Source: Candidatus Zambryskiibacteriota bacterium
GTDB taxonomy: Bacteria > Patescibacteriota > Minisyncoccia > Phycocordibacterales > WO2-35-19
Length of the DNA stretch: 64,000 nt
Reading direction: 5' to 3'
Assembly (NCBI GenBank): GCA_963840745.1
Contig: CAWJAC010000005.1
Location: forward strand, 91,615 to 155,614
In this document: piece after piece, positions 27,830 through 56,641 of the stretch
Position numbering within the stretch: position 1 is the stretch's first letter
How the letters are laid out: each line of letters starts with the position of its first letter
The notes under the pieces: generated by a model
What the model saw: the letters and a program-made list of their open reading frames with translations, nothing else
The model's database searches: none
What the model was told of the DNA's origin: nothing
Program-made: the position numbers and the translations under genes

Positions 27830-28810
27830 TCAAGGTTGAATCTTGACTTTTTCGTAAATTTTATTTTTGCAATTTGAAACCACCCGCCGACGAATCAGCA
27901 TATAATCCGGTTTTATAAAATAGCCCAGAAAATCAATCCCATGGTTGGTTTCTTTTAATTTTGTCTTATCAAGATTCAATTTTATGGCCAAGCGATTCCC
28001 CAGAAAATTATTTATAACCGCTTCCAGCGCCAGCAATTTGGACTCGTCATTGTGAAGCAGGACAAAATCGTCCACATACCTCACATAATATTTCATTTCC
28101 AATTTTTGCTTTACAAAATAATCCAGTTCATTCAAATACATATTGGCAAAAAACTGCGAGCTGTAATTGCCGATGGGAAGCCCCGAGCCTTTGGGCGCGT
28201 AAAAAAGTGACTTGCGCCGCGGAATCAGATCAAACAAACGCCGGTCGCCCCTTATCTCGCAATTTTTGGCTGGTTCATGGAAAGTGATTGTTGAACCGAG
28301 CCAAAGTATTTCTTTTTTCCATTCTTCTGTCCGCTCCGCCTTCAAAATAAAATCATTAAAAATATAAAACAATATATCGTGTTTGATAGAGACAAAAAAA
28401 TTTTTGATATCAAGCTGAAGATAATGTACTTTGTCTTTCCCTCCACGCGAACAGGCGCGCAAGTATCTTCTCAGGGTTTTTACAGCTTGGTGCGTCCCCT
28501 TACCTTTGCGACAGGCAAAACTATTAAAGAAAAAACACTTGTCGCTTTCATCCAAAATTTCTCTAACCATTAAGTGGTGAACGATGCGGTCGCGAAAATC
28601 GGCGGCAAATATCTCTCTCGGCTGGGGATATTTAACCACAAAGCATATCGACCGGCCGGGCGCATAGGTTCCGTTTTTCAGTTCAGTGAGCAAATTCATC
28701 AAATTCTCTTCAAGATGGTACTCAAATTTCAAGGCGTTGTCGGTGCTGCGCTTATTTTTCCGGCAATCCAAATACGCTTTGTATAAATTAGTATATGAAA
28801 AAATAGTCAT
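27830..28810 (-). CDS. DGR-1 reverse transcriptase
   Basis: Start at MTIFSY (28810). RT motifs REIFAADFRDRIVHH and YVRYVDDFVLLH (YxDD). DGR-type motif LPIGNYSSQFFANMYLN. Confidence 0.9.
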   Translation of the reverse strand: MTIFSYTNLYKAYLDCRKNKRSTDNALKFEYHLEENLMNLLTELKNGTYAPGRSICFVVKYPQPREIFAADFRDRIVHHLMVREILDESDKCFFFNSFACRKGKGTHQAVKTLRRYLRACSRGGKDKVHYLQLDIKNFFVSIKHDILFYIFNDFILKAERTEEWKKEILWLGSTITFHEPAKNCEIRGDRRLFDLIPRRKSLFYAPKGSGLPIGNYSSQFFANMYLNELDYFVKQKLEMKYYVRYVDDFVLLHNDESKLLALEAVINNFLGNRLAIKLNLDKTKLKETNHGIDFLGYFIKPDYMLIRRRVVSNCKNKIYEKVKIQP

Positions 28811-28829
28811 AACATAAAACCCCACAAAA

Positions 28830-28860
28830 GACAGTGTCAAAGGCCGCCTTTGACACTGTC
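28830..28860. repeat. hairpin, copy 3 of the GTGTCAAAG family, at the avd/RT junction
   Basis: gacagtgtcaaagg-ccg-cctttgacactgtc, a perfect 14-bp stem. Contains the Avd stop codon. Confidence 0.6.
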
Positions 28861-29298
28861 TGCCCATTTGGCCCAGCCGCCGGCCATTTTTTCCATTTCG
28901 GCTATAAACTGCTCCTGCAAATGAGCAAACTGGTTTATTGAAATCAAGTTTATTTCTTGCGACATCCGCAAACGCATTTTCAATCTTTTAAATGCGGCGG
29001 CAAGCTCTGCGATCTTCTCTGCTTTGCGGTCATTGGGAAGAATATTTATTTCAACCACCAAATCAAGGCAACGCCAAGACAAATCAAGAATTTCCCGGCC
29101 GAGAGAATATTTATGTTCTCTCGGAAAACTGCGGATAATATTGTGCAAATACTTCGTCATCGCGTAAGATTTGCGGTAAAGAGACAGATTTTCGCAATCG
29201 CTCATTTTTTGGTTGTTTGGCTGTCTGAATAGGCGCTTCCCTTCTTTAGTGTGCAGAAGGTGCCCTTCTGCATTTATTTGCGGCAAACGCCCATTCAA
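28837..29298 (-). CDS. avd: DGR-1 accessory variability determinant (Avd-like four-helix-bundle protein)
   Basis: YRKSYAMTKYLHNIIRSFPREHKYSLGREI...EMEKMAGGWAKW. The likely true start is MSDCEN at 29205 (122 aa). Confidence 0.8.
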   Translation of the reverse strand: MNGRLPQINAEGHLLHTKEGKRLFRQPNNQKMSDCENLSLYRKSYAMTKYLHNIIRSFPREHKYSLGREILDLSWRCLDLVVEINILPNDRKAEKIAELAAAFKRLKMRLRMSQEINLISINQFAHLQEQFIAEMEKMAGGWAKWADSVKGGL

Positions 29299-29317
29299 AC
29301 CTTGCTTTTATAAATTT

Positions 29318-29441
29318 CCCGGAGACGCACCGCACGGCGTAGGCGTTATTCTTGTTGTTGTTGTTGTTCGGCACACCAGTGCTGAAATTGACGTTCCAAG
29401 CGTTCGTGGCACTGTTCTCAGTAGAGCTCCAGTATATGGAG
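29318..29441 (-). repeat. DGR-1 template repeat (TR)
   Basis: 124-nt gap-free match to 30540-30663. Coding-sense TR contains AAC AAC AAC AAC AAC. All 9 differences lie at TR adenines. Confidence 0.92.
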
Positions 29442-29618
29442 AACTGAATTCTCCCGCCTTTTCAATTCTCAAATATCTTAAAAAAATATTTTGCAATCAA
29501 TTCCCCATCATATTTGATGTAGGCGCGGGAGCGTGGTTTATATAGCAATCTCTCTTAAATCCGCGCAGCTTTTGCCGCAACAGCACTTAAGATTCCGGCC
29601 AAAGTTAATTAATAAAAT

Positions 29619-30449
29619 TTAATTTTCAATTTTCTTTTTGTTTTTCCGATTTTTCAAAAAATTTTTCTTTGACACAACTGACTTGCCCAGTTCTTTTTCA
29701 AGCTCTTTTCTGGCATTTCCGGCTATTTTTCCGCCTCGGTTTGCGTCTTGTTTTAGTTTTGGAATTCCCCTTGAATCTTCCTGACGATGAATTTCGGTTG
29801 TTGAACGCTCACCCAACATATTAAAAATAAGTTCAAAATCATCCATATGATCACGCAGATTTTCTCTTTTGAGTCCTTTTAGTTTTTTGTATTCACTCGG
29901 AGTAACGCCAAAAGTGGCTTTGGAAATTTCGGCAGTTAAAATTTCATATTCTCTTTCTTCTTTAGCTCCTCTTTTTTTCCATTCATCCGTCAATTCCTCG
30001 CGAATGGCGATGCCTCTCATTCTTTTCTCTATCCAATCATCGGAATATCCTTTGAGTTTGTAAAGTATCCTGGTTCTTTTTGTAGCCAATTCCGGATTTT
30101 CAATTTCTTGTACTCTTTCATACCCCACTTTTGCCAACCAGCGTTTGAATGGTTCAGCTTTGGGCGAAGGAATTGATTGGATGATGCGAAACATACCTTC
30201 CACATCGGCGCAATCTGTTTCTCTCATTTTTCCGTCTGGGGCTGGTAATTTCAACTGTCTACAAATTGTAGATAGTTGAAATCCGTCTTCATTTTTAATC
30301 CTAGCTTTCATAGCTGTCCAATATGCACTTGGTCTATCACTATCCGTCAATGTTTCTATAACATCAATAACAGAAAACCACCATTCATTTTGAAAAATGG
30401 TTTTTCTAATTTTTCGACCTTTAAATAACGCTATTTTTGTTGTTTCCAT
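29619..30449 (-). CDS. Bro-N / DNA-damage-inducible protein D (DinD)-like protein
   Basis: N-terminal Bro-N pattern (IRKTIFQNEWWFSVIDVIETLTDS..P..YW). C-terminal DinD-like region (AKVGYERVQEIENPELA...LTAEISKATFG). Confidence 0.7.
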   Translation of the reverse strand: METTKIALFKGRKIRKTIFQNEWWFSVIDVIETLTDSDRPSAYWTAMKARIKNEDGFQLSTICRQLKLPAPDGKMRETDCADVEGMFRIIQSIPSPKAEPFKRWLAKVGYERVQEIENPELATKRTRILYKLKGYSDDWIEKRMRGIAIREELTDEWKKRGAKEEREYEILTAEISKATFGVTPSEYKKLKGLKRENLRDHMDDFELIFNMLGERSTTEIHRQEDSRGIPKLKQDANRGGKIAGNARKELEKELGKSVVSKKNFLKNRKNKKKIEN

Positions 30450-30533
30450 TTTTTTATTCTCTTTTTTCGCGCGAGGATGGGAAAATAAAACTAAATTAAA
30501 AATTAAAAAATTAATAAATGGGGCAAATGGGAA

Positions 30534-30986
30534 CTACCACCCGGAGACGCACCGCACGGCGTAGGCGATATTCTTGCCGTTGCCGTTGCCCGGCACACCA
30601 GTGCTGAAATTGACGTTCCAAGCGTTCGTGGCACTGTACTCAGTAGAGCTCCAGTACATGGAGGTTCCGAAATTATTCCCGAATTTTGTCGCGCGGTAAG
30701 TGTATATGGCATTCAATTCATCAATTGTCGGCAATCGACCACCGATGGCTTTGCAAGCGTCTCGGGCCGCATAACTGCTGAAATTTATGGTGTTGTCGGC
30801 TTTCAGATTGTCTCCGTCCTGCCCGCCATCGATGCCGCATTGCGGCCTATCACAAGCCGTGTTGGTCGGTTTCCAGGCGTAAGCTTGTCCTCCGGGTAAG
30901 AGAAGTGGTGGCAACCAAAATATAATTTCCATCACCCAGACGATCGATAATGACATCATCGTAACCGGTGCCGCAAAACCAAACAT
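30534..30986 (-). CDS. DGR-1 variable target protein, DUF1566/C-type-lectin-like C-terminus
   Basis: GGRLPTIDELNAIY...MYWSSTEYSATNAWNVNFSTGVPGNGNGKNIAYAVRCVSGW. The 5' end is uncertain: frames upstream suggest a fusion with 30989-31171. Confidence 0.85.
   Translation of the reverse strand: MFGFAAPVTMMSLSIVWVMEIIFWLPPLLLPGGQAYAWKPTNTACDRPQCGIDGGQDGDNLKADNTINFSSYAARDACKAIGGRLPTIDELNAIYTYRATKFGNNFGTSMYWSSTEYSATNAWNVNFSTGVPGNGNGKNIAYAVRCVSGW
30540..30663 (-). repeat. DGR-1 variable repeat (VR)
   Basis: Covers the last ~41 codons of the target. Differs from the TR at + positions 30568, 30577, 30578, 30583, 30584, 30589, 30590, 30638 and 30657 only. Confidence 0.92.
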
Positions 30987-37094: not shown

Positions 37095-37334
37095 CTATTT
37101 ATAAAAAATCCCAAATATTTTGTCTTGAGGAAAAATTCTTTTCAGAGATCGAATGATAGCTTTTAATGTTCCTCTATCGATTTCTTTATGGAGAGGTATC
37201 GTTATAAATGTCCTTAAATCAGAGTCATTTTTTACGAGTCTAACATGGCTTCCTTTTTGTCGAATCACTTCAAAACCTTCTTTGACTAAAATCTTCAAAA
37301 GATTTTCTCCGGAAATTCTGCGAAGCTTAGGCAT
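37095..37334 (-). CDS. hicA: type II toxin HicA
   Basis: 79 aa. SGENLLKILVKEGFEVIRQKGSHVRL. Confidence 0.85.
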   Translation of the reverse strand: MPKLRRISGENLLKILVKEGFEVIRQKGSHVRLVKNDSDLRTFITIPLHKEIDRGTLKAIIRSLKRIFPQDKIFGIFYK

Positions 37335-37545
37335 AGGCGATTTTAGAAAAATCCATATTCATCATGACGGGAGGAAATGATTTCGCATTATCAGTATCTT
37401 CAATACTTACTTCTACCGCCTCTTTGATATTTAGAACTAATTCTTCAAAGGTTTTTCCTTGTGTAAATATGGCCTCTTCATCAGCCGAGGCAATATAAAA
37501 ACCATCCTCTCCTTTTGTTATTGTAAAATTGATTATCTTATTCAT
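37327..37545 (-). CDS. hicB: type II antitoxin HicB-like
   Basis: MNKIINFTITKGEDGFYIASADE..IFTQGKTFEELVLNIKEAVE. Overlaps hicA by 8 nt. Confidence 0.8.
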   Translation of the reverse strand: MNKIINFTITKGEDGFYIASADEEAIFTQGKTFEELVLNIKEAVEVSIEDTDNAKSFPPVMMNMDFSKIAYA

Positions 37546-37827
37546 ACTTCTATTATACCATACTCCATTTAAAAAAAATACTCTTTCCCATATCACGACA
37601 TTGGCTCATCAAAATCTCACGCTTTTCGGAGATTTTGGCACCTTGAGTGCTATCCGTGATATGAAAAAGAGTATTTTATTTGACATTTGGCAAATTTCAT
37701 TTCCCTTCCTAACCTCTCCAACTCCCCTTACTTTAAGGGGAGGGTTCGGAAGGAACAATTTCGGTAGTAGTTGAAGCGGTTGATTCAATCACTATCGGTG
37801 TTGTAGAAGCGACTACCGAAACCTCTA

Positions 37828-40047
37828 TCACTGCCGGTGTCGTAGTTGATGTGTCAGAAATGGTAGAAGTAGAAACTCCGGCAACTTCTGGCACAACGTG
37901 CGGTAGTGGCAGGAGATAATTGTAATCGTTCGAAAGTATCTCATTGTCGGCACCGCGATAGAACTAAACACCTTAGCCGATTTCACGGCCAGAGCGGTCC
38001 AGCTGAAAGGAACGTCTGTCGGAGCCGGTTTGTTGAGAAGAATAGTGAAGCCTTTTTCTGATTTATTGGTCACCAAAAATCTCACATCATTCGAGAAAAT
38101 CTGTTCTTCAATATTATTTCCACCAACCGGCATGGTGGAAGTAGCGGCCTGCGGTGAGCCTGTCGAATCCGTTGAGGAAGCCGCATCAAATGAAATAGTA
38201 GTGTTGACGATCGGCTGTTCCAAATATTCTCTATCAAATGTTACTTCTACTTCCCTACTGCCCGCCTTGACCACAGCAAACCCGGCCGTGTCTTTGGTGA
38301 AGTATGGTCGGCCTATAAATTCGGTATCCGACATGAGGCTTAAGTAATCACTGACAGATGAAATCTGATCTACATGCAAACCATTATTTAAAGTCAAAGG
38401 AGCGTCAATAGTAAGGCCATTTGGGTTCCCGAACATTGCGTTTATATCGATTGCTCCAGTACTGCTAGCGGTTTTCGCGGTTTCCAATATTTTTAACCTA
38501 TCACTCAAATCAGCAAAATTAAGCACCAATTTATCGGTAGTGGAAGCCAAAATATTTAAAGAATTTTCCAAACTCTCAAGAGTCAAAGAAGTGCTTGATG
38601 AAATTTGATTCAAATTTGCAAGTGAAGTTCCAATGTCTTTAACATTAAATCCGCTCGCCGTAACTTGACCGACAAAAGAAGCGTTGCCAAAAGCGTCAAC
38701 AGTAATGGCCGGCAAATCAACGCCTCGATATGAAGATTTCAAAGTGGAAGTGCCGTTAAGAGCATCTAACACATCAACAGCTCCGCCAATTTGTTTGATA
38801 GCGTTTAAAGCGACGGCAGACAGCGAACCGTAGTCAACGGTCATTGACCCGCTTGTGCCGTAAACCACTTCAGGAATTGTATTTTGGAGCTCTTGGGCTA
38901 TAAAGCCGAGGCCGGGCTGGCCGTTGGCTTTGTAATTAAATTCCCGCGGTTCAAGTTGCATGGCTGTAGCCAAACCATATCTCAAATCGGCGACATTGTA
39001 TTTGTAGGCGGCATCAGAAGAGTTGGTCCACACGCCGGTTGTGGTAAGTGTCGCCGTAGTTGTAGTTGATTGGAAAGAGAGGGTGCCGTCGGTAGACATC
39101 CAGAGCGAACGATACGAATTTCCGCTCTGCGGAGTCGGAGAAAGAGTCAAACCTCCGTTCTGATCATTAGAACTTTGAACAATTGCTAGTTTACCCCACG
39201 GACTCGTCGTCCCGATGCCGACATTGCCGTGGCCATCTATTCTCATTCTTTCCCCAAGCCCATTAATGTCTGAATTATAGGTAGAAAAAGCCATATATCC
39301 GTTAGTTATCGTAGCGCCAAGCCCAGCAGTAATGCGTTGTGTTTCTGTTAACCCGTTTCCTGCATACCACGAAATATGGGAAGTTAAGTTTAAGCCGTTA
39401 GCGTAATTGAGTCTTAAGGCTTCAGCATCAACAGCTTGCCCCGATTGGTCCAATGTCAAAAGTGGGTTAGTAGCAAGTTGCCCTGCGCCAGGCTGGATAA
39501 GGACATTTGTTTTGCCAGTGATAGCCGTTGCATCTTGAATAAACAGAGTTTGATTTGCCGTTCCTCCATTTGGCTGAACTTGCAAAGTATATGTCGGCGT
39601 GCTCGTCCCGATGCCGACGTTGCCTGCATTTGTTACGACTAAACCAGTTCCACTTGACCCACTGACATTTAACGCCTGATTAGTATTTAAAATATCGGCA
39701 CCAAGAATCTGCAATTTAGCTGATGGGGTCGCGATTCCCATGCCGATATTGCCTGAATTTTGCTGCACTACAAACTGATTTATGCCAATTGTCAAACCAC
39801 CCGTTGAAATTGTTGAGGTGGCCACCGTGCTGGTGGCATTAAAATTACCAAAGGTCGGAGTGGAGGTGGCTACAATTGCTCCAGTTCCATTTGTTGAGAG
39901 TATTGAGTTGATGGCACAGCGGATAAAGTGACAGCACCGGTAATGGGGACGGAAAATCCGGTGGCCGTTAAGATACCGGTTGAAGGAACAAAAGATAATT
40001 TTGTTGTGGAAATTTTTGCCGCGGTGTTGCCTGCAGCGGTAGTCCAA
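37828..40047 (-). CDS. giant tail-fibre-like surface protein, fragment 6 of 6 (contains S74 intramolecular-chaperone-like domain)
   Basis: GN(I/V)G(M/I)G(I/T)..P..KL motifs. S74-like WTNSSDAAYKYNVADLRYGLATAMQLEPREFNYK...GFIAQELQNTIPEVV...VDYGSLSAVALNAIKQ at about 38785-39030. True frame runs from about 39915 to about 37950. A further frame runs to TAA 37734-37736. Confidence 0.65.
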   Translation of the reverse strand: MDYRCRQHRGKNFHNKIIFCSFNRYLNGHRIFRPHYRCCHFIRCAINSILSTNGTGAIVATSTPTFGNFNATSTVATSTISTGGLTIGINQFVVQQNSGNIGMGIATPSAKLQILGADILNTNQALNVSGSSGTGLVVTNAGNVGIGTSTPTYTLQVQPNGGTANQTLFIQDATAITGKTNVLIQPGAGQLATNPLLTLDQSGQAVDAEALRLNYANGLNLTSHISWYAGNGLTETQRITAGLGATITNGYMAFSTYNSDINGLGERMRIDGHGNVGIGTTSPWGKLAIVQSSNDQNGGLTLSPTPQSGNSYRSLWMSTDGTLSFQSTTTTATLTTTGVWTNSSDAAYKYNVADLRYGLATAMQLEPREFNYKANGQPGLGFIAQELQNTIPEVVYGTSGSMTVDYGSLSAVALNAIKQIGGAVDVLDALNGTSTLKSSYRGVDLPAITVDAFGNASFVGQVTASGFNVKDIGTSLANLNQISSSTSLTLESLENSLNILASTTDKLVLNFADLSDRLKILETAKTASSTGAIDINAMFGNPNGLTIDAPLTLNNGLHVDQISSVSDYLSLMSDTEFIGRPYFTKDTAGFAVVKAGSREVEVTFDREYLEQPIVNTTISFDAASSTDSTGSPQAATSTMPVGGNNIEEQIFSNDVRFLVTNKSEKGFTILLNKPAPTDVPFSWTALAVKSAKVFSSIAVPTMRYFRTITIISCHYRTLCQKLPEFLLLPFLTHQLRHRQ

Positions 40048-40427
40048 AGCGGATAGACAGACGACACTGTTGCCAAGTCATCAGCGGAATTAACCGGCAC
40101 GGTAATATCGATGCTGCCATCAAAAGCCGTTCCATTAATATTTTTAGTAGCAAAAAGTTTGGTGGCGGTGGAAGCGTTGCCGGAGAAAGCGCCGGAAAAT
40201 GTTGTAGCTGTGAATGTTCCCCCGCCGGAAATATTATTGCCACTCATTGCAATATTGCCAAACATATTTAATCCACCAGCACCAATATTTGATGCCAGTG
40301 TTGTTGAAGTCGCATTAAAATTGCCAAACGTCGGAGTGGTGGTGGAAACAAATCTTGTGCCGTCAAAAGCAAGCAAAGTGTTGTTGGCAAATGAGGTAGC
40401 GTTAGTGCCGCCGTTTGCAATGCCCAA
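39870..40427 (-). CDS. giant tail-fibre-like surface protein, fragment 5 of 6
   Basis: GIANGGTNATSF...FSGNASTATKLFATKNINGTAFDGSIDITV, a fibre-type repeat. Joins its neighbours by 1-nt shifts near 40448 and 39915. Confidence 0.6.
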   Translation of the reverse strand: MGIANGGTNATSFANNTLLAFDGTRFVSTTTPTFGNFNATSTTLASNIGAGGLNMFGNIAMSGNNISGGGTFTATTFSGAFSGNASTATKLFATKNINGTAFDGSIDITVPVNSADDLATVSSVYPLWTTAAGNTAAKISTTKLSFVPSTGILTATGFSVPITGAVTLSAVPSTQYSQQMELEQL

Positions 40428-40435
40428 AGTGCCGG

Positions 40436-41263
40436 TCAGAGAAGTGAGGGCGCCGTCAAGTTGCCGAAATATGCATAGGTGGATGAGGCATAGGTGGCCG
40501 AGAGCAAAGTGGTGGAAGCATTGGCAAAAGTCTGCAGTCCAGTCCAGCTGTTGGCATTGGCCAGATTGAGACCAATGGTGACAGCCGCATTTTCGGCGCC
40601 GGAGTTGTTGACTGTCAATCCGCCACTGGCGGCGTTGGCCAGGGTGGCTAAGTAGTTGCCGGTGGTGTCAGTGCCGAGGATGATCAAGTCAGCTAAGGTT
40701 GAGGCCCCGGTGCCTCCATACAAAACCCCGATGGTGGTGGTCGCTCCGACCACGCCGGCTCTGACATCAAGCGGGCCGTTCAGAGTTGAGGCCAGATTGA
40801 TGGTGCCGACATTGAGATTGGTGGTGGAGGCGGTGATGAAGGAAGAGTATGAAGTGGAAGAAGAGTATGAGGAGGAGAACAAACCACCACCGGAGATATT
40901 GTTTCCACCCATGGCAATGTTGCCGGCCATGGTGCCTCCTGTCAGAGCCAGGTTGCCGGAAGCCGTGCCGGTCAGGGCGGCCGTGATGGTGCCGGCAGAG
41001 AAGTTGCCGCTTGAATCGCGAGCCACCAAAGTGTTTGCAGTGTTTGTTGAGGAAGTGGCCACATTGCCGAAGGTGTTAACACCGGTGAAGTATGGAATGT
41101 TGCCGATGACAGCGGCGGAGGAGGTGGACAGTCCGCCAAAGCCGACTGTGGTGCCGGAGAGAGTGATGGGCCAGGTGACGGAGATGGCGGCTTGCTTCCC
41201 GCTGAAAGTATTGTAGTCGGAGGTGGAGAGACAGCCGGCTTGCGAACCGTGGCGGTGAGGCAA
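40436..41263 (-). CDS. giant tail-fibre-like surface protein, fragment 4 of 6
   Basis: AGCLSTSDYNTFSGKQAAISVTWPITLSGTTVGFGG...LVARDSSGNFSAGTITAALTG. Confidence 0.6.
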   Translation of the reverse strand: MPHRHGSQAGCLSTSDYNTFSGKQAAISVTWPITLSGTTVGFGGLSTSSAAVIGNIPYFTGVNTFGNVATSSTNTANTLVARDSSGNFSAGTITAALTGTASGNLALTGGTMAGNIAMGGNNISGGGLFSSSYSSSTSYSSFITASTTNLNVGTINLASTLNGPLDVRAGVVGATTTIGVLYGGTGASTLADLIILGTDTTGNYLATLANAASGGLTVNNSGAENAAVTIGLNLANANSWTGLQTFANASTTLLSATYASSTYAYFGNLTAPSLL

Positions 41264-41940
41264 GTCAGTGTGGCGGCTGCGCTTCCGATGACTGAAATGG
41301 CGTGATCGAGAGAGAGAGCTCCTGTGGCAGAAAGTGATGTGGTGGCCACCGAGCCTAACTTGGCCGGCACACCGTTAGTGGTTGTCCAATATGCCAGATT
41401 GCTCATGACTTCACCTGATGAAGTGGCCAGTTGGTTTGAGAGTGTGATAGTGCCGCCGAGAGCCACTGTGCCTCCGCCACTTAAACCAGTGCCTGTGTTA
41501 ACGGTGACGGAAGTGTTGGTCAAACCGAGAGAACCTGAATTGTTTGTCAGTCCCGTGCCAGCCAGATTGTTAAATGATTGATTTCCCACGATGAGATTGG
41601 TGGTGGAGGCGGTGATGAAGGAAGAGTATGAGGTGGAGGAGGAGTATGCAAAAGTTTGATTGCCAATAAATGTTTGAGCGGCATCGGTGCGAGCTAAGGT
41701 GGCGTTAGAGTCAGGTAGGGTGAAAGTTTTTTCAGATGATGTTGGGCCCACGAATTTGGTAAAGCCATTGCCTGTGCCGCCATATGTTGAAGCAATGATT
41801 TGATTGAGATCAGCTGAACCGTTAAAGGTGTTGCCATAAATTGATCGAGAGTTTGCAAGTGTGGTGGCTGTACTGGCATTGCCTGTCAAAGCAGCAGTGA
41901 TGATGCCGGCTGCAAAGTTGCCTGAGGCATCTCGGGCCAC
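40972..41940 (-). CDS. giant tail-fibre-like surface protein, fragment 3 of 6
   Basis: ARDASGNFAAGIITAALTGNASTATTLANSRSIYGNTFNGSADL. The last ~95 residues of the track ORF are an out-of-frame read of fragment 4. Confidence 0.6.
   Translation of the reverse strand: MARDASGNFAAGIITAALTGNASTATTLANSRSIYGNTFNGSADLNQIIASTYGGTGNGFTKFVGPTSSEKTFTLPDSNATLARTDAAQTFIGNQTFAYSSSTSYSSFITASTTNLIVGNQSFNNLAGTGLTNNSGSLGLTNTSVTVNTGTGLSGGGTVALGGTITLSNQLATSSGEVMSNLAYWTTTNGVPAKLGSVATTSLSATGALSLDHAISVIGSAAATLTCLTATVRKPAVSPPPTTILSAGSKPPSPSPGPSLSPAPQSALADCPPPPPLSSATFHTSPVLTPSAMWPLPQQTLQTLWWLAIQAATSLPAPSRPP
41052..41187. repeat. intragenic 136-bp direct repeat, copy A
   Basis: Matches 41965-42100 with 4 mismatches and no gaps. 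Confidence 0.85.
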
Positions 41941-44102
41941 AAAGGCTCGGCGGTATTGATTGATGAAGTGGCCACATTGCCGAAGGTGTTAACTCCGGTG
42001 AAGTATGGAATGTTGCCGATGACAGCGGCGCATGAGGTGGACAGTCCGCCAAAGCCGACTGTGGTGCCGGAGAGAGTGATGGGCCAGGTGACGGAGATGG
42101 TTCCCTGTTTTCCATTGAGTGTAGTTTGCAAATCTGTTCCTCCTAATGAAAGTGTTCCAAAGAACACATTGGTTGATAAGGCATATGTTGAAGAGAATAA
42201 TGTTGAAGAAGCGTTGGTGAATGTTTGTAATCCAGTCCAGATATTTGCATTTGCTAAATTTAGAGTCAGAGCATTGCCTGAAATTTGTAACCCGCTACCA
42301 GTTAAATCATTAAATGATTCGCCATTAACAATTAAATTTGTAGTACTCGCAGTATTAAAAGATGAATATGCAGTTGATGAAGAGTATCCGAAGGAAAGAA
42401 TGGAGGTGGTGGCAGAGACTCCAACTGATGGATGGGTGAAGGCATCGTATGAATACAGCGGTGAGCCGAAGTCGGACACTTGCGATTTGGTGATTAAGAG
42501 ATTGGGCAGAGAGATGATGGAAGAGATTGAAGTGGTACCCATTTCAATTTTTCCATTATTTAAAGTGTTTAGTGAAGTTTGTAAATCATTGCCACTGAGA
42601 GAGAGGGTGCCGAAGTATGCATTGGTTGATGAAGCATAAACGGAGGAGAAGAGAGTGGAGGAAGCATTGGCAAATGTTTGCAAGCCAGTGAAAATATTAT
42701 TTTTATAAAGTTTAGCAATGGTGGTCGATGCATCAATGTATGAATTAACAACTGAAGTATCAAGAGTAAGCGCACCGCCGGTATTAATAAGTCCCGAGCC
42801 CAATAAATTGTTAAAAGAATTATTTCCTACAATTAAATTGGTGGTGCTTGCGGTGTTGAATGAAGAATAAATGGTCGAAGATGAATAAAGGAAACTGACA
42901 TTGCCGCTGGCGCGCCAGACATTTGTGCCATCGGTTGCCCAATTACCGGTAGTGGCTCCGCCAATAATATTGCCCGCCCAATAAAGATCACCATTTGAAT
43001 TATAAAGACGAGAAGATGAATCGGAAGGAATGGAAGTAGAAGCAATATAGAAAGCGCCATCTAAAGTTAAAGTGTCTTGCCTTGTGGTAGTACCTACCGC
43101 AAGCCAATCTGTAGCAGAAAGATTAGTGGCAGTAGTAGTTCCAAATGTGGCAGAGTCGGAAACTGAAAGAGAAGTGAATGATCCGGAATCAGCAGAAACA
43201 GAAGAGCCAGAAAAAGAAGAATTGGTAATTGTAGAGCTGTCTATATTGGCAATGCTGTTTTTAATGCTGCCACTTAAATTATCAATAATCCTGTCATTTT
43301 GATTTGTGATGTAATAGCGATTGACGTTTGGAACTGTATTTGAAACGAAAGGCAATGTCAGGAAATAATTTTTTAATTGCGCGATTTGCGTGTCTACATA
43401 ATTTCTATCGGAGCTGGCCACAAAAACAGTTTTAGCTATGCTTGCTCCCGCCGAAGTGGGAGCGGAGGTGGGAGAAGTGGTGGAGGATGTATTATTTTCA
43501 ACGATAATAGTGCCTCCATTATTTGAAAGCCAAGGTTTTATTATTTTATACGCAGTATCTTTTATCCATCCAGAAACAGATTGCAATCCATCTACAGAAA
43601 ATATAGAAGAAGCAAGCTGACTGCTATTTTGCCCCAAGTTTGAGGCATTTTTCTTAAATTTTGAATAATTACTTTCCAATTCATTCACATAAGGACCAAA
43701 GACATAGGACAGCTCTCCTTTGACATGACTACCAAAATTATTTGGAATCAACTTAGCCATGCTTTCTTTTCCAAAAACAAAACCAAAAGCAGAGAGTAAA
43801 ACAAAGGAAACTATGGTGGCATTTATGGCAAGCTTTTCGAAATTAGACTTCTTTTTTGGTCTTTTTATTGCCTCCTCAATACTACTCAGAGCAATATATT
43901 TTGCCGCATTTGCGTCAAACTTTTTTTCCAAAACTGGAAATAATGGTTTATCATCCTTGTGATATAAGGGTTTTACCACTCCGACATCTCGGGTGCCCGA
44001 GATATTCGATTTTATCCCCTTCTTTTTCCAGTGGAAAAATAACATCTGAAGCTGAGTTTTTACTATATTTAGGGATATTTTTTTCTTTACTTTCTCTATC
44101 AT
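41886..44102 (-). CDS. giant tail-fibre-like surface protein, fragment 2 of 6
   Basis: TM anchor (AINATIVSFVLLSAFGFVFG), then Ser/Thr/Asn-rich repeats (YSSSTxYSSFxTASTTNLIV). Confidence 0.65.
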   Translation of the reverse strand: MIEKVKKKISLNIVKTQLQMLFFHWKKKGIKSNISGTRDVGVVKPLYHKDDKPLFPVLEKKFDANAAKYIALSSIEEAIKRPKKKSNFEKLAINATIVSFVLLSAFGFVFGKESMAKLIPNNFGSHVKGELSYVFGPYVNELESNYSKFKKNASNLGQNSSQLASSIFSVDGLQSVSGWIKDTAYKIIKPWLSNNGGTIIVENNTSSTTSPTSAPTSAGASIAKTVFVASSDRNYVDTQIAQLKNYFLTLPFVSNTVPNVNRYYITNQNDRIIDNLSGSIKNSIANIDSSTITNSSFSGSSVSADSGSFTSLSVSDSATFGTTTATNLSATDWLAVGTTTRQDTLTLDGAFYIASTSIPSDSSSRLYNSNGDLYWAGNIIGGATTGNWATDGTNVWRASGNVSFLYSSSTIYSSFNTASTTNLIVGNNSFNNLLGSGLINTGGALTLDTSVVNSYIDASTTIAKLYKNNIFTGLQTFANASSTLFSSVYASSTNAYFGTLSLSGNDLQTSLNTLNNGKIEMGTTSISSIISLPNLLITKSQVSDFGSPLYSYDAFTHPSVGVSATTSILSFGYSSSTAYSSFNTASTTNLIVNGESFNDLTGSGLQISGNALTLNLANANIWTGLQTFTNASSTLFSSTYALSTNVFFGTLSLGGTDLQTTLNGKQGTISVTWPITLSGTTVGFGGLSTSCAAVIGNIPYFTGVNTFGNVATSSINTAEPLWPEMPQATLQPASSLLL
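41965..42100. repeat. intragenic 136-bp direct repeat, copy B
   Basis: Matches 41052-41187. Encodes ISVTWPITLSGTTVGFGGLSTS.AAVIGNIPYFTGVNTFGNVATS. Confidence 0.85.
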
Positions 44103-44418
44103 TTATATCTTCATTTTGCTCTTTTTTTAGACTTCTTAGATTTTTTGGATTTGCCGATTTTACAGCCAAACCATTTTTTTTAAGTCGGCGAGTTTTGAGG
44201 GTTTTCTTGTGAGCAAGTAGATTTTTATTTTTGTGATCTAAAATTTCGTTCTCTAAGACATACCAGCTCCTGCCAACCAGACTGGCAGAGATTTTTTTTG
44301 CTCTGCAAAGTTGTCCGACATAATCACTGTCATAGCCGGTGATGTCAGCAGCTCGGCTAGCCGAGATGTATTTTTTACCTTTCAGATAGAGAGTCTTATT
44401 CACATATATATTATACAA
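43951..44418 (-). CDS. giant tail-fibre-like surface protein, fragment 1 of 6 (N-terminal HTH-like module)
   Basis: KKYISASRAADITGYDSDYVGQLCRAKKISASLVGRSWYV. Joins fragment 2 by a shift near 43990. Confidence 0.55.
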   Translation of the reverse strand: MYNIYVNKTLYLKGKKYISASRAADITGYDSDYVGQLCRAKKISASLVGRSWYVLENEILDHKNKNLLAHKKTLKTRRLKKNGLAVKSANPKNLRSLKKEQNEDINDRESKEKNIPKYSKNSASDVIFPLEKEGDKIEYLGHPRCRSGKTLISQG

Positions 44419-44732: not shown

Positions 44733-44978
44733 ATGAATAAATATATAACAATAATGGAGGCCGCTAATATATTAGGTGTTTCTAAGATCACTCTAAGAAA
44801 TTGGGATAAATCCGGTAAGCTTAAAGCCCACCGCCACCCATTTAATAACTATAGAGTCTATAAACTAGAAGATATTGACAAAGTGATAGAAATGATTGAG
44901 AGTGATAATTTCATTATTAAAAAGAAGAAAAACGAGATTCGCAAGCTTGCTGTTCATCACCTGGAAGAAGGTGAGTAA
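44733..44978 (+). CDS. MerR/excisionase-type HTH DNA-binding protein
   Basis: ITIMEAANILGVSKITLRNWDKSGKLKAHRHPFNNYRVYKLEDI. Confidence 0.75.
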   Translation: MNKYITIMEAANILGVSKITLRNWDKSGKLKAHRHPFNNYRVYKLEDIDKVIEMIESDNFIIKKKKNEIRKLAVHHLEEGE

Positions 44979-45468: not shown

Positions 45469-46137
45469 ATGAGATTAGAGAATTTTGCAGAAAAAGAGTA
45501 CTACCACGTCTTTGGCAGAGGTGTTAATAAAGAAAAAATATTTATTGATGACCACGACAAGGCAAGATTTATATTTTTAATTACCCATTTTCAGTCCCCT
45601 ATCAAGATATATAATGTTAATTGGTATACAGAAAGTTTTATCAAAAAAAATTATTTTAGTACTAAAGAAGACAGAGTTAAGGAGATAGTCAACAAAAGAA
45701 ATATTGAGCTTGTTTCTTTTGTTCTGATGTCAAATCATTTTCATCTTTTGGTCCAAAATTTGGAAGATCGTATATTATCGGTATATATGCATCGAATCCT
45801 TACCGCCTATAGTAAATATTTCAATAACAAATATAAAAAGAAAGGACATGTTTTTGAGGGTCCATTTGGAGCAACGCATATTAAGAACAACACTCAACTA
45901 TTGCACCTATCTGCTTATATACACAAGAATCCAAAAGAGATCAGGGGCTGGGAAAATACTTACAATAAATATCCGTACTCAAGCTATCAGGACTTCATCG
46001 GTCTAAATAGATGGGGTCATTTGCTGTCCCCCGATATAGTTCTAAAACAGTTTAAAGACCAAACAAAATATAAGGATTTTGTGGATACCAGCACCGCCAA
46101 AGAAGGTCTAAATGGCCTTGAGAATGAGGTCCTTTAA
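45469..46137 (+). CDS. IS200/IS605-type Y1 (HUH) transposase, RAYT-like
   Basis: YHVFGRGVNKEKIF; HUH as SNHFHLLV; catalytic Tyr region LSAYIHKNP. Confidence 0.8.
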   Translation: MRLENFAEKEYYHVFGRGVNKEKIFIDDHDKARFIFLITHFQSPIKIYNVNWYTESFIKKNYFSTKEDRVKEIVNKRNIELVSFVLMSNHFHLLVQNLEDRILSVYMHRILTAYSKYFNNKYKKKGHVFEGPFGATHIKNNTQLLHLSAYIHKNPKEIRGWENTYNKYPYSSYQDFIGLNRWGHLLSPDIVLKQFKDQTKYKDFVDTSTAKEGLNGLENEVL

Positions 46138-50137: not shown

Positions 50138-50178
50138 GAGGGTGACCCTTGAGGATTCTGCCCCAAAGGGTCACCCTC
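50138..50178. terminator. 13-bp perfect hairpin overlapping the RT-2 stop codon
   Basis: gagggtgaccctt-(15 nt)-aagggtcaccctc. A second GC hairpin, ccctcccct-tgatc-aggggaggg, lies at 50064-50086. Confidence 0.5.
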
Positions 50179-51157
50179 AATTCCTCTTTCCTTTAATCCA
50201 ATTCTTGGGTATTCTACGATTTAGCTTCTGTAACAGCTTAATCTTCAATCCTCTTGATCGACAATGAGAGAGAATGCCGTTATAGGAAGAAAAATTCTTA
50301 TCAGTAGCTTTCCTTAACATTCTCTTCTTGGTTTTAGTCCTCAAAATTCTGTAATTGGGAAAACAAACATAACCAAGATAATCAATACCGCTTGAATAAG
50401 TTTTTAAGACTATCTTATCCGGATGGATTTTTAGTTTCAGATTTTTCTCTGTAAAATCTTGAATCTTTAAAAGGCATGCCTCTAAAAAACTTCTGTCCGG
50501 GTGCATAAGTAAAAAATCATCAGCATATCTGATATATCCTCCAACTTTCAATTCGTGCTTCACAAACTGGTCGAGCTTATTCATGTAAATATTGGCGAAA
50601 ATCTGAGAAGTGAGATTGCCAAGCGGTATGCCAGAGTCAAAACTTTCCGTTATATCTTCAAGAAGTTTGATTAATCTGCCATCAAAAGTCTCTTTTCTTA
50701 ATATTTTTAGAAGTATTTCGTGATCAACGGAATCAAAAAATTTCTTGATGTCCAGCTTCAATATCCACAAAGTCCTGCTATTGTTGCGAGAAAGCTTAAG
50801 CCCCATTTTATGAAGGCGTTTAATAGCCCAATGAGTGCCTTTGTATTTTCTGGAAGACCATGAATCAAAGATGAATTTCTTGTCCCACATCTGCTCTATG
50901 ACTCTGATAATTGCATGATGCAAAAGCCTGTCACGGACACTTGCCTTGTGGATATGCCTCTTTTTTGGATCATTAATGAAAAAGGAAAAATAACCGCCAT
51001 GTTTATAAGTCCCATTTACCAGATCTTCATGCAATCTAAAAATATTGTCTTCAAGACTAAGCTCAAACTCAGCGACATCCTTCTTTCTCCTTTTGTCCCT
51101 ACGAAACTCAGTCCAAGCGTCGAACAAATTTTTTAATGAAATAATTTTTTCAAACAT
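50177..51157 (-). CDS. DGR-2 reverse transcriptase
   Basis: Start MFEKII at 51157 (alternative 51181). RHIHKASVRDRLLHH, IRYADDFLLMH (YxDD). DGR-type IPLGNLTSQIFANIYMN. Confidence 0.9.
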   Translation of the reverse strand: MFEKIISLKNLFDAWTEFRRDKRRKKDVAEFELSLEDNIFRLHEDLVNGTYKHGGYFSFFINDPKKRHIHKASVRDRLLHHAIIRVIEQMWDKKFIFDSWSSRKYKGTHWAIKRLHKMGLKLSRNNSRTLWILKLDIKKFFDSVDHEILLKILRKETFDGRLIKLLEDITESFDSGIPLGNLTSQIFANIYMNKLDQFVKHELKVGGYIRYADDFLLMHPDRSFLEACLLKIQDFTEKNLKLKIHPDKIVLKTYSSGIDYLGYVCFPNYRILRTKTKKRMLRKATDKNFSSYNGILSHCRSRGLKIKLLQKLNRRIPKNWIKGKRN

Positions 51158-51158
51158 A

Positions 51159-51536
51159 ATGAATACAAAAAATGATATCAAAACCGCCGAACAAACTCCT
51201 CTGTTTCAGGCGGTCTATAAGTTGTATCTATCATGGTATGTCAGATGCAGCCAAATTCCAAAGAAAGACAGGTTTACCATCGGCCAAAAAACGGAAAACT
51301 TGCTTTTGGAGATTCTGATTCTTATAGTTACCGCTTACCACACAAACAATCCGGAATATAAAAGGCAATCTCTGTCTAAAGCAAATACTTTGCTTGAGTG
51401 CATTAAGGTTACTATTCGACTGGCCAAAGATGTAAAAGCTCTGGAACAGCGCTGGTACATAGATTATCAGACCAGAATCCAAGAAATGGGCAAAATGCTA
51501 GGCGGGTGGATCTCTAGCACAAAACTTGATTTATGA
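51159..51536 (+). CDS. avd: DGR-2 Avd-like four-helix-bundle protein, divergent from the RT
   Basis: AVYKLYLSWYVRCSQIPKKDRFTIGQKTE...IQEMGKMLGGWISS. Same ..P(K/R)..(F/Y)(T/S)(I/L)G.. and M.GGW pattern as Avd-1. Confidence 0.75.
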   Translation: MNTKNDIKTAEQTPLFQAVYKLYLSWYVRCSQIPKKDRFTIGQKTENLLLEILILIVTAYHTNNPEYKRQSLSKANTLLECIKVTIRLAKDVKALEQRWYIDYQTRIQEMGKMLGGWISSTKLDL

Positions 51537-51759
51537 TATACTTAAATTTATGATAAATATGACATTAAAAAAACCAAACAGTAGAGTGCTTTTCTCAAGC
51601 CTTTGGGAGGCCCGTAGGAGAATTTCAACGCTTACAAAGCAACAAAAATCTACCCTTGAAAAGGAGTGGGATGTTGAGCATGCCTACTACTCTAGCGCCC
51701 TGGAAGGAAGTAAACTAGATAAGAAAGAGTTCGAAAAATTAGGAGAAAAGATTGATTAA
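51526..51759 (+). CDS. small protein carrying a Fic inhibitory-helix motif (S/T)xxxE(G/N)
   Basis: ..EHAYYSSALEGSKLDKKEFE... Either a class-I-like Fic antitoxin or the detached N-terminus of the next gene. Confidence 0.5.
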   Translation: MIYDILKFMINMTLKKPNSRVLFSSLWEARRRISTLTKQQKSTLEKEWDVEHAYYSSALEGSKLDKKEFEKLGEKID

Positions 51760-51767
51760 ATACCGCT

Positions 51768-52409
51768 ATGGCAGAACGACCTCATAACGAAGAAGAATTA
51801 CAAAAGCGAGAGGCTGTCGGAGTAATCCGAGCCTCTCGTTTTGTCAGACGTTATGCCAATTCGCATAAACCAATTGATGTAAATACCATCTCACTTGTTC
51901 ACAAAGAAATATTTAAAGAAGCTTGGCCAGAAATAGCAGGTAAATATCGTTATGAAAATTTGAAAATTACCGACTCAAAACATTTACCGCCACACTATTC
52001 TCAAGTTTCTGAACAGATGGAGGATGCAGGAAGAGAATTTTCCAACCAACTTGAAAAACTCCAAAAAGTTGAAGGTCTCTTAATTATGAACCAAAATCCA
52101 ACCGATGAAGTTTTGAGGGTCATTGACGATATTGTGACCTGTGCCGCTTGGATACATCACCTCATTACTTACATACATCCGTTTCGTGACGGCAATGGCA
52201 GAACTGCGCGACTGGTGGCAAATCTTATTTTGGAACGCTATGGTTTGGTCGGTATTTCCATAAAGATGGAAAAGGAAAACAAAAATAAGTACCGCCAAGC
52301 TCTTGCTCAAATCGACAATGTTAAAGATTATAAACCGCTCAAAGCCATTATTTACGAGGGATTGATTGATCGTTATAACGGAGTGAGTATAAAATATTAC
52401 AATGTTTAG
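51768..52409 (+). CDS. Fic domain protein
   Basis: HPFRDGNGRTARL (HxFx[DE]GNGRxxR). Confidence 0.85.
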   Translation: MAERPHNEEELQKREAVGVIRASRFVRRYANSHKPIDVNTISLVHKEIFKEAWPEIAGKYRYENLKITDSKHLPPHYSQVSEQMEDAGREFSNQLEKLQKVEGLLIMNQNPTDEVLRVIDDIVTCAAWIHHLITYIHPFRDGNGRTARLVANLILERYGLVGISIKMEKENKNKYRQALAQIDNVKDYKPLKAIIYEGLIDRYNGVSIKYYNV

Positions 52410-52482
52410 ATATTTGAAAGTTCTTGTTTAATAAGCTATTATTATAGTGTCTGAAATTTTATTACTTTTTTAATATAAAATT

Positions 52483-52923
52483 ATGTCAGAAAAATTTGAA
52501 AAAGGTATCACCCCTGAGGGGTCCAAAGAGAAGTTTTATGTGTTTGTCGAGCTTGGAACTAGAGATTTTGAATACGAGGTACATGCATCATCTGAAGAAG
52601 AAGCAGAAAAACTTGCTGAACAAGCGATAAACGAGCAGGGGTTAAAAATATCAAATATTGAAGTAAATGAAAAAGCGCTTAATCCTGATCATATAGATGG
52701 CAAATTGGGAGACGAAACAAAAGAAAGCCAAAAAACATATTATGTTTTTGTTGAACTTGGGACAAAAGGGTTAAATTTTGAAGTAATAGCCACATCAGAA
52801 GAAAAAGCCGAACAAATTGCCGCTGACAAAGTTAACGAAAGAGGACTGAAAGTTGCATATGTTGAAGCCAACAAACAACCACCCTCCCCAATGTTATCAG
52901 ATGTTGAAATGTTGGAAGAATAA
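52483..52923 (+). CDS. hypothetical protein made of two tandem ~60-aa repeats
   Basis: KFYVFVELGTRDFEYEVHASSEEEAEKLAEQAINEQGLKISNIEVNEKA versus KTYYVFVELGTKGLNFEVIATSEEKAEQIAADKVNERGLKVAYVEANKQ. Confidence 0.5.
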   Translation: MSEKFEKGITPEGSKEKFYVFVELGTRDFEYEVHASSEEEAEKLAEQAINEQGLKISNIEVNEKALNPDHIDGKLGDETKESQKTYYVFVELGTKGLNFEVIATSEEKAEQIAADKVNERGLKVAYVEANKQPPSPMLSDVEMLEE

Positions 52924-52956
52924 ATTTTTAGAGTTAAATTAGCAAAATACACAGCC

Positions 52957-52988
52957 AAAACGAACGGATAAATGTCCGTTCGTTTTTT
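52957..52988 (+). terminator. rho-independent terminator (12-bp stem plus T-run), abutting the TR-2 3' end on the other strand
   Basis: aaaacgaacgga-taaatg-tccgttcgtttt followed by ttttct. Confidence 0.7.
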
Positions 52989-53004
52989 CTCTATGAGAGT
53001 GACT

Positions 53005-53120
53005 TCGGAGGGAAACAACACCCAAATTGTCGTTGCGATTGTCGGGGTTATCGTTGTTGACGTTGACGCCGTTGCGGTCAGCGTTGCCGAGATTCACAAG
53101 CTTGCCGTTAGAGGAAAGGG
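53005..53120 (-). repeat. DGR-2 template repeat (TR)
   Basis: Coding-sense TR is rich in AAC/AAT codons (..NGKLVNLGNADRNGVNVNNDNPDNRNDNLGVVSLR). 115-nt gap-free alignments to three VRs. Confidence 0.92.
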
Positions 53121-53417
53121 TTGTTTTTGCGTCTCTCCATCCAAATCAGGGGCCGTAACTGGGCAGACGCATCTTATAGGATGTAAGTAGCGCCTGTTGT
53201 GTAAAAATGCGGTGGCTGATTTAATCCGTCACCTAAGTGAATTTACATAAATCACCACTCCAGAGCGACGCAAGCAGTTCTTCTCTCATAATTCAATATT
53301 GGCGAGAATCATGACATGCACGATCCTTCATTAGCCATAAGCATTATACACCAAAAAATTGCGGCGAAGAAACCAAAGGTTTAAAGAAAAAAGATCTAAA
53401 GTATCAAGAGAGAAAAA

Positions 53418-54401: not shown

Positions 54402-54487
54402 ATTTATTGTTTATTAGTTTTATTTTATTTAAAGCCAGTATATCATAAAAAATTTCGCGGAAAAACCAAAGAAACAAAGAAAAAAGG

Positions 54488-55412: not shown

Positions 55413-55546
55413 TTTACCACTTGCTTCAACTTCAGCTTTTAATTTCTCAATATCTTTAATAAGTCCGGCTTTCTCTGGAGATACACCACCAATTTCCAGT
55501 CTTTTTCTTTTTGACTCACCTGGTTTAGGTTTATATTCAACCAGTC

Positions 55547-56638: not shown

Positions 56639-56641
56639 AAT

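Follow-up and report, generated by a model that had tools for sequence, protein, structure and literature searches.

A frame-broken giant fiber gene of a Patescibacterium, with an S74 chaperone domain ahead of a lectin-like head

We analyzed a stretch of 64,000 nucleotides (the window) from contig CAWJAC010000005.1 of a Candidatus Zambryskiibacteriota bacterium (GCA_963840745.1), whose minus strand carries a frame-broken giant fiber gene. In our reading, to which we give a probability of about 0.7, this is a chromosomal gene of Patescibacteria (Parcubacteria-type) for a trimeric surface fiber, anchored in the membrane by its N-terminus and built from phage-tail-fiber-type modules, and the breaks in its frame are most likely errors.

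A first-pass annotation of the window had joined six open reading frames (ORFs) across 1-nt shifts into a protein of about 2,200 amino acids, with a helix-turn-helix (HTH)-like N-terminal module, one transmembrane (TM) segment, S/T/N-rich repeats and GN(V/I)GIGT motifs, an S74-type segment at 38785-39030 and about 350 further residues ending in a T/S/V/P-rich tail. The observation is real and the continuity of the frame holds. However, there are seven stop-free segments (44424-43951, 44102-41886, 41988-40972, 41374-40436, 40667-39870, 40077-37828 and 37963-37733) and six junctions, the last of which is not a simple 1-nt shift. At all six overlaps, fiber-like sequence exits one frame and resumes in the next. 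The corrected frame contains zero stops over its 2,226 codons, which agrees with the length first proposed. It ends in a TAA, as had been noted, at 37733-37735; the coordinate given for it earlier, 37734, was one base off. By comparison with homologues, the true start is likely to be the GTG at 44403 (MNKTLYLKGKKYIS; MNKTLYLKG...) rather than the TTG at 44418. Modules and junctions (J1 to J6) are listed in Table 1.

The S74-type segment corresponds to a significant Pfam match, Peptidase_S74, within the range first reported (E=1.8e-10; 41.3 bits against a cut-off of 22; profile positions 1-58 of 58), and a hidden Markov model of our own, built from 11 S74 segments, agrees with this assignment. 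The match starts exactly at the putative catalytic Ser1799 (39016-39018), with Lys1804 at 39001-39003 (SDAAYK, codons checked). The third of the GNVGIGT-type capping-loop motifs, by which a preceding fiber is recognized at the level of motifs, lies 70 aa before Ser1799. In phages, the S74 chaperone forms the extreme C-terminus, a piece of about 130-160 aa that is discarded once cut off. Here 428 residues run from the catalytic serine to the end of the protein, 352 of them after the Pfam match, and the arrangement is not of the phage type: a separate folded domain lies downstream. The large extension had been called atypical, which is true for phages, as PHROG profiles show S74 ending 10-160 positions short of the profile end. 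Phage tblastn matches and PHROG tail-fiber families cover the S74 region and end there, before the head.

Structure prediction on the C-terminal extension, one of the checks proposed at first pass, gave a long helix followed by an H-type-lectin-like beta-sandwich and an S/T/P tail. The AlphaFold2 (AF2) model of P0001, a homologue 97% identical, was poor overall, with helices after S74, a 38-residue helix (38467-38580) that probably forms a coiled coil, and then a confident beta domain. When window residues 1990-2156 were modeled with 26 relatives, the mean predicted local distance difference test score (pLDDT) was 82, exceeding 90 in the core. Top Foldseek matches were the Helix aspersa and Helix pomatia agglutinins, SLL-2 and discoidin II (for the window model: probability 1.0, E 0.013-0.03, TM-score 0.58 normalized to the target). 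Over two independent AF2 models H-type lectins came out on top, at E 0.009-0.03 and TM-score 0.53-0.59, which is a moderate match; the C-terminal domains of phage tailspikes and R-pyocin fibers came next. Foldseek on the P0001 model returned matches for the lectin part only, and none for S74. At the sequence level, Pfam H_lectin is weakly detected in 16 of the 27 family members (best E=1.3e-5), and no NCBIfam model matches any part of the fiber protein. We thus describe the head as H-type-lectin-like by predicted fold and not as a PF09458 member by sequence.

This head is very common on giant Patescibacterial proteins, which strengthens the view that the gene encodes an adhesin. A scan of GTDB, with one genome per species and a six-sequence alignment as query, returned 148 loci, nearly all in genomes titled as lineages of the Candidate Phyla Radiation (CPR): Parcubacteria, Paceibacteria, Nomurabacteria, Doudnabacteria, Kaiserbacteria and others. 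Many bins are labeled Saccharibacteria, and a few head-bearing bins are probably mislabeled. No relative above 60% identity was seen in this species scan. In the 80 loci kept for an analysis of ORF position, the module is found in uninterrupted ORFs, 40-330 aa short of their C-terminus; many of these ORFs are longer than 2,000 aa and several longer than 3,500 aa. A profile search of 1.84 billion representatives yielded 2,692 clusters at E<=1e-3 (1,755 at E<=1e-10), with proteins of up to 5,555 aa. All named homologues belong to Patescibacteria/Parcubacteria, in agreement with the episymbiont lineage suggested at first pass. A full-text literature search retrieved no paper pairing H-type lectin with the Patescibacteria terms searched.

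The N-termini of head proteins vary. Most have a signal peptide followed by an INFQG(K/R)L domain; L058, P0220 and P0295 have an HTH+TM N-terminus, and P0004 has that of a type IV pilin (TIGR02532 above cut-off). P0004 and P0005, both from metagenomes, are short proteins in which a type IV prepilin N-terminus (GFTLVE-type) is followed by a helical stalk, a lectin-like head and an S/T/P tail; in Patescibacteria, such proteins may serve as minor pilins with a lectin tip.

S74 precedes the head in 2 of the 80 GTDB loci and in 5 of 130 further representatives (about 3-5%). Six more proteins combine S74 and head (P0001, P0003, P0015, P0019, P0028 and P0029), and the fusion is seen with both kinds of N-terminus, in proteins ranging from 394 aa to 5,152 aa (P0263). 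The serine and the lysine five positions on are kept in 14 of 14 aligned S74+lectin proteins despite wide divergence. The arrangement thus appears recurrent and, judging from the alignment, its catalytic residues look selected, so that cleavage by S74 is probable.

At the other end of the protein, the HTH-like module described at first pass is recognizable as a conserved block, KYISAsrAAxxTGYxsDYIGQLCRxKKIxAxLvGRSWYV, with 22 residues invariant across homologues. Its match to Pfam HTH_17 is weak, however: E=4e-4 and 21 bits, below the cut-off of 27, and E<=0.01 in three of seven homologues. An hhalign comparison between this module and the neighboring MerR/HTH_17 gene was not significant. The single TM segment could be retrieved: residues 196-216 form the only strongly hydrophobic stretch (hydropathy maximum 2.14 over 19 residues), at a position kept in homologues and P0220. 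KRPKKK stands just ahead of it, which suggests a cytoplasmic N-terminus and about 2,000 further residues outside the cell.

The shaft consists of 13% Ser, 14% Thr, 9% Asn and 10% Gly. Motif counting recovered both the S/T/N-rich repeats and the GN(V/I)GIGT motifs reported earlier: YSSSTxYSSFxTASTTNL four times, ARDxSGNFxAGxITAALTG twice and GN[VI]G[IM]G..P..[KT]L three times. PHROG tail-fiber families match several shaft pieces and, together with the phage tblastn matches over the shaft and S74 part, bear out that these motifs are typical of phage tail fibers. Local shaft repeats are common to 335 proteins. An internal 184-nt repeat (41027/41940) was considered as the template/variable pair of a diversity-generating retroelement (DGR) and rejected: its 22 mismatches have no adenine bias.

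The context of the fiber gene is cellular and not that of a prophage. Flanks of about 37 kb and 19 kb encode MraY, FtsW, MurG, MurJ, LepA, GatB, ScpA/B and four aminoacyl-tRNA synthetases. The window further holds a histidine kinase, Pif1, glycoside hydrolases, a tetratricopeptide repeat (TPR) protein, HicAB, Fic and two reverse transcriptases. Pfam and PHROG scans of these flanks detected no capsid, portal, terminase or tail genes, as anticipated by the first-pass annotation, which had seen no phage context. The order (reverse transcriptase)-GH15-GatB-Y1_Tnp-MerR-fiber recurs in four Patescibacteria/Parcubacteria contigs: L082 (ENA ERZ27254845), L083 and L084 (Hainich groundwater, 0.1 µm fraction, both carrying P0041) and L085 (GCA_012514175.1, Parcubacteria group bacterium). 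In L083/L084 and L085, the contig ends within the fiber gene. In L082, the gene is one intact ORF of 1,284 aa (P0220), with the same order of HTH+TM, S74, helix, lectin and tail. Fiber residues 6-379 align with residues 1-334 of P0220 at 47% identity, and residues 1502-2158 with 378-1193 at 34% identity; about 1,120 extra shaft residues lie between the aligned ends.

Together, the cellular synteny, the PHROG and tblastn matches of the shaft and the lectin-like head support the earlier suggestion of a cellular adhesin derived from fiber modules, for which host attachment is plausible on the strength of sequence and predicted structure. The HTH_17-like domain would stay in the cytoplasm, with the rest of the fiber displayed outside the cell. 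By analogy with phage fibers, with the mosaic adhesive trimers (MATs) of Bdellovibrio and with MYRF, S74 would trimerize three chains and nucleate the folding of the upstream shaft, and it probably cuts between Ser1798 and Ser1799. The lectin-like head would bind a surface glycan of a host cell or another surface. Known H-type lectins form trimers whose subunit interfaces bind GalNAc-type sugars, which would suit a trimeric fiber. The head may act as the distal tip of the fiber or, after cleavage, as a separate, possibly still associated trimer: most relatives bear it directly on the shaft without S74, which points to the head as the working tip, while the conserved dyad implies that it is cut off in the S74 subgroup. 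An S74 domain placed before a functional head offers a natural test of the rule that the chaperone must be C-terminal and disposable. To our knowledge, how ultra-small Patescibacteria (CPR) recognize and attach to their hosts is largely unknown beyond a few Saccharibacteria. The head, for which neither Pfam-A nor NCBIfam has a dedicated model and which ends thousands of giant surface proteins, is a candidate attachment module.

Table 1. Modules and frame junctions of the reconstructed fiber gene (window coordinates)
Feature	Coordinates	Strand	Remarks
Whole reconstructed fiber gene	37733..44418	-	2,226 codons + stop
HTH_17-like (excisionase/MerR-type) module, predicted cytoplasmic	44224..44361	-	residues ~20-67
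Single TM helix, aa 196-216 (INATIVSFVLLSAFGFVFG)	43770..43832	-	after KRPKKK
Conserved juxtamembrane domain (W284, KPW, PNVNRYYITNQND)	43278..43769	-	invariant alignment columns
Variable shaft, aa 380-1500	39916..43277	-	tail-fiber-like repeats; absent from the 1,284-aa syntenic orthologue
High-G+C cassette within shaft	40400..42200	-	1.8 kb, ~50-60% G+C, contains J2, J3, J4
Pre-S74 beta-helix-type region	39019..39915	-	three GN[VI]G[IM]G..P..[KT]L loops at aa 1554, 1597, 1729
Peptidase_S74 core	38860..39018	-	Pfam PF13884 match
Rest of chaperone-like region, predicted helices + short strands, 38-residue helix 38467-38580	38467..38859	-	AF2 of P0001, pLDDT 55-79
H-type-lectin-like beta-sandwich head	37990..38304	-	GRPYFTxDTAGFAxVK ... 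KGFTIxLNK ... FSWxALAVK
S/T/V/P-rich low-complexity tail + TAA	37733..37897	-	similar tails after lectin module in homologues
J1	44005..44030 (~44017)	-	one extra base; A5/G4/A4 runs
J2	41940..41950 (~41945)	-	one base missing
J3	41240..41255 (~41248)	-	one base missing, between ACN Thr codon and GGT Gly codon
J4	40448..40462 (~40454)	-	one base missing, ACN|GGC
J5	39905..39925 (~39916)	-	one base missing
J6	37898..37947	-	four indels (+2, +1, +10, +1 nt) vs intact L001 contig

Several points weigh against a working, membrane-anchored fiber. With 6 breaks in 6.7 kb, the gene is about six times as densely hit as the remainder of the window, where at least 8 fall within about 57 kb; base-calling errors do not typically take the form of a 10-nt indel such as that at J6; and all six shifts are called probable errors from sequence comparison, not from reads. 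The high-G+C cassette has no close relative in the collections searched, a metagenome scan included, and is absent from the orthologue, so the shaft may be part-chimeric. The S74 fold lacks structural confirmation in the monomer AF2 model of P0001, where pLDDT is 55-79, and the HTH_17 assignment is sub-threshold. As to the head, the copy in the window has no Pfam H_lectin match at E<=10, a head profile run against PDB sequences found nothing, and the Foldseek E-values are only about 0.01, with a high root-mean-square deviation over the full alignment. If S74 does cleave, the head is cut off the fiber, which fits a simple tip-adhesin picture badly. Trimer formation, cleavage, sugar binding and the host are all predictions.

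A first alternative is recent inactivation: the gene would be a pseudogene, with at least some of its six breaks, if not all, being real mutations in this strain. Besides the density of the breaks and the long indel at J6, two facts speak for it: the fiber gene of Logan contig L001 has a frameshift of its own, different from ours and located further up the gene, and surface-fiber genes are often variable or dispensable. The joins themselves have independent support at five of the six junctions. The site equivalent to J1 is contiguous in six homologues (39-57% identity). At J2, an internal paralogous copy is contiguous and reads TTGGTGGCT where this copy reads TTGTGGCC. The join at J3 restores a Cys-x9-Cys with the same spacing as in the uninterrupted homologue L096. 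P0041 is continuous across the site equivalent to J5, reading ...TLSGTAINSILSTNGTG..., and P0001 is uninterrupted through J6, reading ...AVPTEIPSTITIIPAAVPEVAGV.... ACN|GG is the context of both J3 and J4, G(G)TG that of J2 and J5; such sharing among the missing bases is suggestive of a systematic error, with too few sites to claim one.

Lesions of the same kind are found in other genes of the window. The gltX gene is split by a TGA at 13579-13581, exactly at the conserved Trp of ...LLGW...; an alternative code with UGA as a sense codon was considered for it and rejected, as TGA ends seven normal genes at proper domain ends. The lepA gene has a -1 shift at about 24070, gatB (about 46210) switches frame about 35 codons before its end, GH15 (about 49151) has one shift, and GH57 (63073-63998) has four shifts within 0.9 kb, the last of these by comparison with intact L082 proteins. 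The GH15 protein of L082 is a single ORF of 651 aa, and GatB is likewise intact there. At least eight comparable disruptions in other window genes, essential ones included, weaken the idea of a dead gene. Furthermore, L001 shares 3.9 kb with the window at 99.5% identity, and the breaks of the one are matched by intact sequence in the other (J6 against a 439-aa gene). The breaks in gatB, lepA, gltX, GH15 and GH57, this reciprocity and the lack of any nonsense codon in the corrected frame argue for an error-prone consensus rather than decay, and orthologues elsewhere are intact. Exact-match queries with P0002, P0040 and two ORFs of the window, made to trace independent copies of the broken segments, had no entry on record. 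The six breaks are thus most likely consensus or assembly errors at a repetitive, population-variable locus, and we regard inactivation as unlikely. Frameshift-rich assemblies can make such fiber genes look dead. In another long-contig metagenome-assembled genome (L050; CAWCTC010000001.1, 280376-300786), an S74+lectin ORF begins with an apparent out-of-frame translation of the repeats (MEYLLQLLLRQ...), which suggests that its fiber gene is frameshifted as well.

A second alternative concerns the shaft, which may be part-chimera: either the cassette at 40.4-42.2 kb or everything above 39228 would stem from a different strain or organism, with repeats or capping-loop sequences common to both as the point of joining, and the true gene would be shorter, like the 1,284-aa orthologue. 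Cassette G+C peaks at 55-60% between 40400 and 41400, against about 39% for the window, and the extra 1,120 or so residues are missing from the orthologue. The near-identity with L001 starts at 39228 (nt 999 of L001), on the first codon of the third GNVGIGT motif (GNVGIGTTSPWGKL), and upstream of this joint the two fiber genes are unrelated. The short-read contigs of relatives, moreover, end within the fiber gene. On the other side, the cassette belongs to the same repeat families as its flanks: its repeat units are written in GC-rich codons, the same units occur in AT-rich form at 42155-42889, the DNA identity with the AT-richer flanking copies is 64-91%, and the logic of the frame continues through it. 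The cassette also lies in the middle of a 167-kb contig, and intact giant relatives of 2,000-5,500 aa indicate that such lengths are normal. A joint at a conserved motif is equally expected from biological module exchange: the conserved loop motif may be a recombination joint. The data thus leave either an exchange of modules at conserved motifs, as in phage fibers and MATs, or a partial assembly chimera, and we hold the latter to be rather improbable. The cassette also yields long spurious ORFs on the plus strand, antisense to the gene (40111-40569, 40656-41216 and 41956-42639).

A third possibility is that the lectin-like module and the S/T/P tail hold the protein on the wall or S-layer glycans of its own cell and not on a host, in which case the N-terminus of the signal-peptide relatives would be the distal tip. 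Most giant relatives indeed start with a signal peptide and a conserved INFQGKL domain, beyond which no anchor is obvious. In monoderm surface proteins, S/T/P-rich stretches typically serve to span the wall. However, the module also ends pilin-like proteins, which are anchored by their N-terminus, and both the fiber protein and P0220 already possess an N-terminal TM anchor. Furthermore, H-type lectins, like the phage tailspike and pyocin C-terminal domains that the head also matches, are receptor-binding parts. Retention on the cell's own wall therefore seems doubtful to us.

More speculatively, what began as a disposable folding aid may in this Patescibacterial family have become a processing switch: once S74 has nucleated the fiber trimer, it would cut the chain and either free a ready-made trimeric lectin or leave it docked non-covalently, with the HTH-like domain making the protein a contact sensor more than a passive adhesin. 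The released trimer may then comprise the chaperone, the coiled coil and the H-type-lectin head, set free from a membrane-anchored fiber, while the cytoplasmic HTH-like domain could couple the fiber to DNA or to a cytoplasmic partner. With such a switch, which we think improbable, an organism poorly equipped with secretion systems could shed or arm an agglutinin that binds its host.

That the gene encodes a prophage or phage-derived tail fiber still serving a virus or tailocin-like particle is very improbable: its S74 and shaft motifs do match phage tail-fiber families, and a BRO-N protein, DGR cassettes and toxin-antitoxin genes occur in the window, but the 19-37 kb on either side are also devoid of tail tube, sheath and baseplate genes, the housekeeping synteny is conserved in the four other contigs, an N-terminal TM anchor is not a virion feature, and a pattern scan of IMG/VR found no relative of the head module.

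Some neighbors of the fiber gene, which we read as a cellular adhesin gene, deserve mention. Adjacent to it and divergent from it, a MerR/HTH_17 gene (44733-44978, plus strand) is the best-conserved neighbor, with 89% identity to L082. Next to this gene, an IS200-like Y1 transposase homologue (45469-46137, plus strand) is kept in synteny in L082 and L083/L084 and is thus probably domesticated rather than mobile; L085 has at this position a 210-aa gene without a Pfam match. Directly downstream of the fiber gene, on the minus strand, 37095-37596 contains a gene for a HicA toxin (79 aa) and one for a putative HicB (89 aa, without a Pfam match); the pair is present in L001 and absent from the syntenic L082 locus.

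Further along, a complete DGR occupies 27830-30986 on the minus strand, with a reverse transcriptase (27830-28867), an Avd protein (28837-29298; phrog_3206, E=1.5e-23), a template repeat at 29318-29441 and a variable repeat at 30540-30663, at the 3' end of the ORF 30534-30986. On the coding strand, each of the nine mismatches between template and variable repeats replaces an A (A-to-N). A second reverse transcriptase (50177-51181) lies in the region 50177-59074, along with a family of 155-nt repeats (copies at 52997, 53413, 54507 and 58224). ORFs 53418-54401 and 58229-59074, paralogous over 265-300 nt, carry copies at their 3' ends. This region may be a DGR with several targets; its mismatches are only partly adenine-biased.

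Among known systems, the closest is that of the MAT fibers of Bdellovibrio bacteriovorus, cell-encoded adhesins whose end is formed either by an S74 domain that cleaves itself (SDxxxK) or by a tip domain, lectin folds included (PMC10769870). Examples are Bd3182, of the S74 type, and Bd2133, Bd2740 and Bd2734, which have non-S74 tips. Caulton et al. described a capping-loop consensus upstream of S74 in Bdellovibrio MATs and MyRF, V-G-G/N-pi-x-x-P-x-x-x-L, and the GNVGIGTxxPxxKL motifs of the fiber protein correspond to it (PMC10769870). The best PDB sequence match is also a MAT, Bd2133 (8OND), although a weak one (E=0.0034, query aa 155-224 to chain aa 196-271), and beyond the local GNVGIGT..P..KL match we saw no similarity to Bd2133. 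As with MATs, the fiber is cell-encoded, long, beta-helical and related to phage fibers, with a trimer that is here predicted only; it shares the SDxxxK motif, its tips are mosaic, exchangeable and inclusive of lectin folds, and its organism lives by contact with other bacteria. Unlike MATs, which end in S74 or in a tip, it has S74 and then a tip domain, a combination not described for them. The N-terminus also differs: in place of the signal peptide and conserved beta-rich N-domain of about 130 aa that characterize MATs, we find an HTH-like module, a TM helix and a lineage-specific juxtamembrane domain. Finally, the organism belongs to another phylum, the protein is about twice as long, and the MAT tips described do not include an H-type-lectin-like head.

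Phage fibers and tailspikes, such as the K1F endosialidase (3GW6) and T5 pb1 (4UW8), share with the fiber protein a Pfam-significant S74, the Ser-Lys dyad and preceding beta-helix or fiber repeats. They differ from it in that here a folded head is included in what follows the catalytic serine, the N-terminus is membrane-anchored and there is no virion context. MYRF/MyRF, a eukaryotic membrane-bound transcription factor (PMC3742443, PMC8326128), resembles the fiber protein in its internal S74 with domains beyond, its N-terminal domain of putative DNA-binding type, its one TM segment and its capping-loop motif upstream of S74. However, the order in MYRF is DNA-binding domain, S74 and TM, and cytosolic cleavage frees the transcription factor. 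In the fiber protein, the TM helix stands between the HTH and S74 (aa 1799 onwards), and beyond S74 there is no homology. This places S74 outside the cell, where cleavage cannot free the HTH, and excludes the MYRF mechanism. H-type lectins (PF09458), for their part, provide the best structural matches to the head and the weak Pfam hits within its family. The head departs from them in its sequence identity of 12-18%, a window copy below Pfam detection, a long insert between strands (aa ~2066-2100 of the reconstruction) and its context in a giant bacterial protein. S74 fiber adhesins are thus known, MATs among them; what is new here is an S74 domain ahead of a lectin-like head on a cell-encoded fiber.

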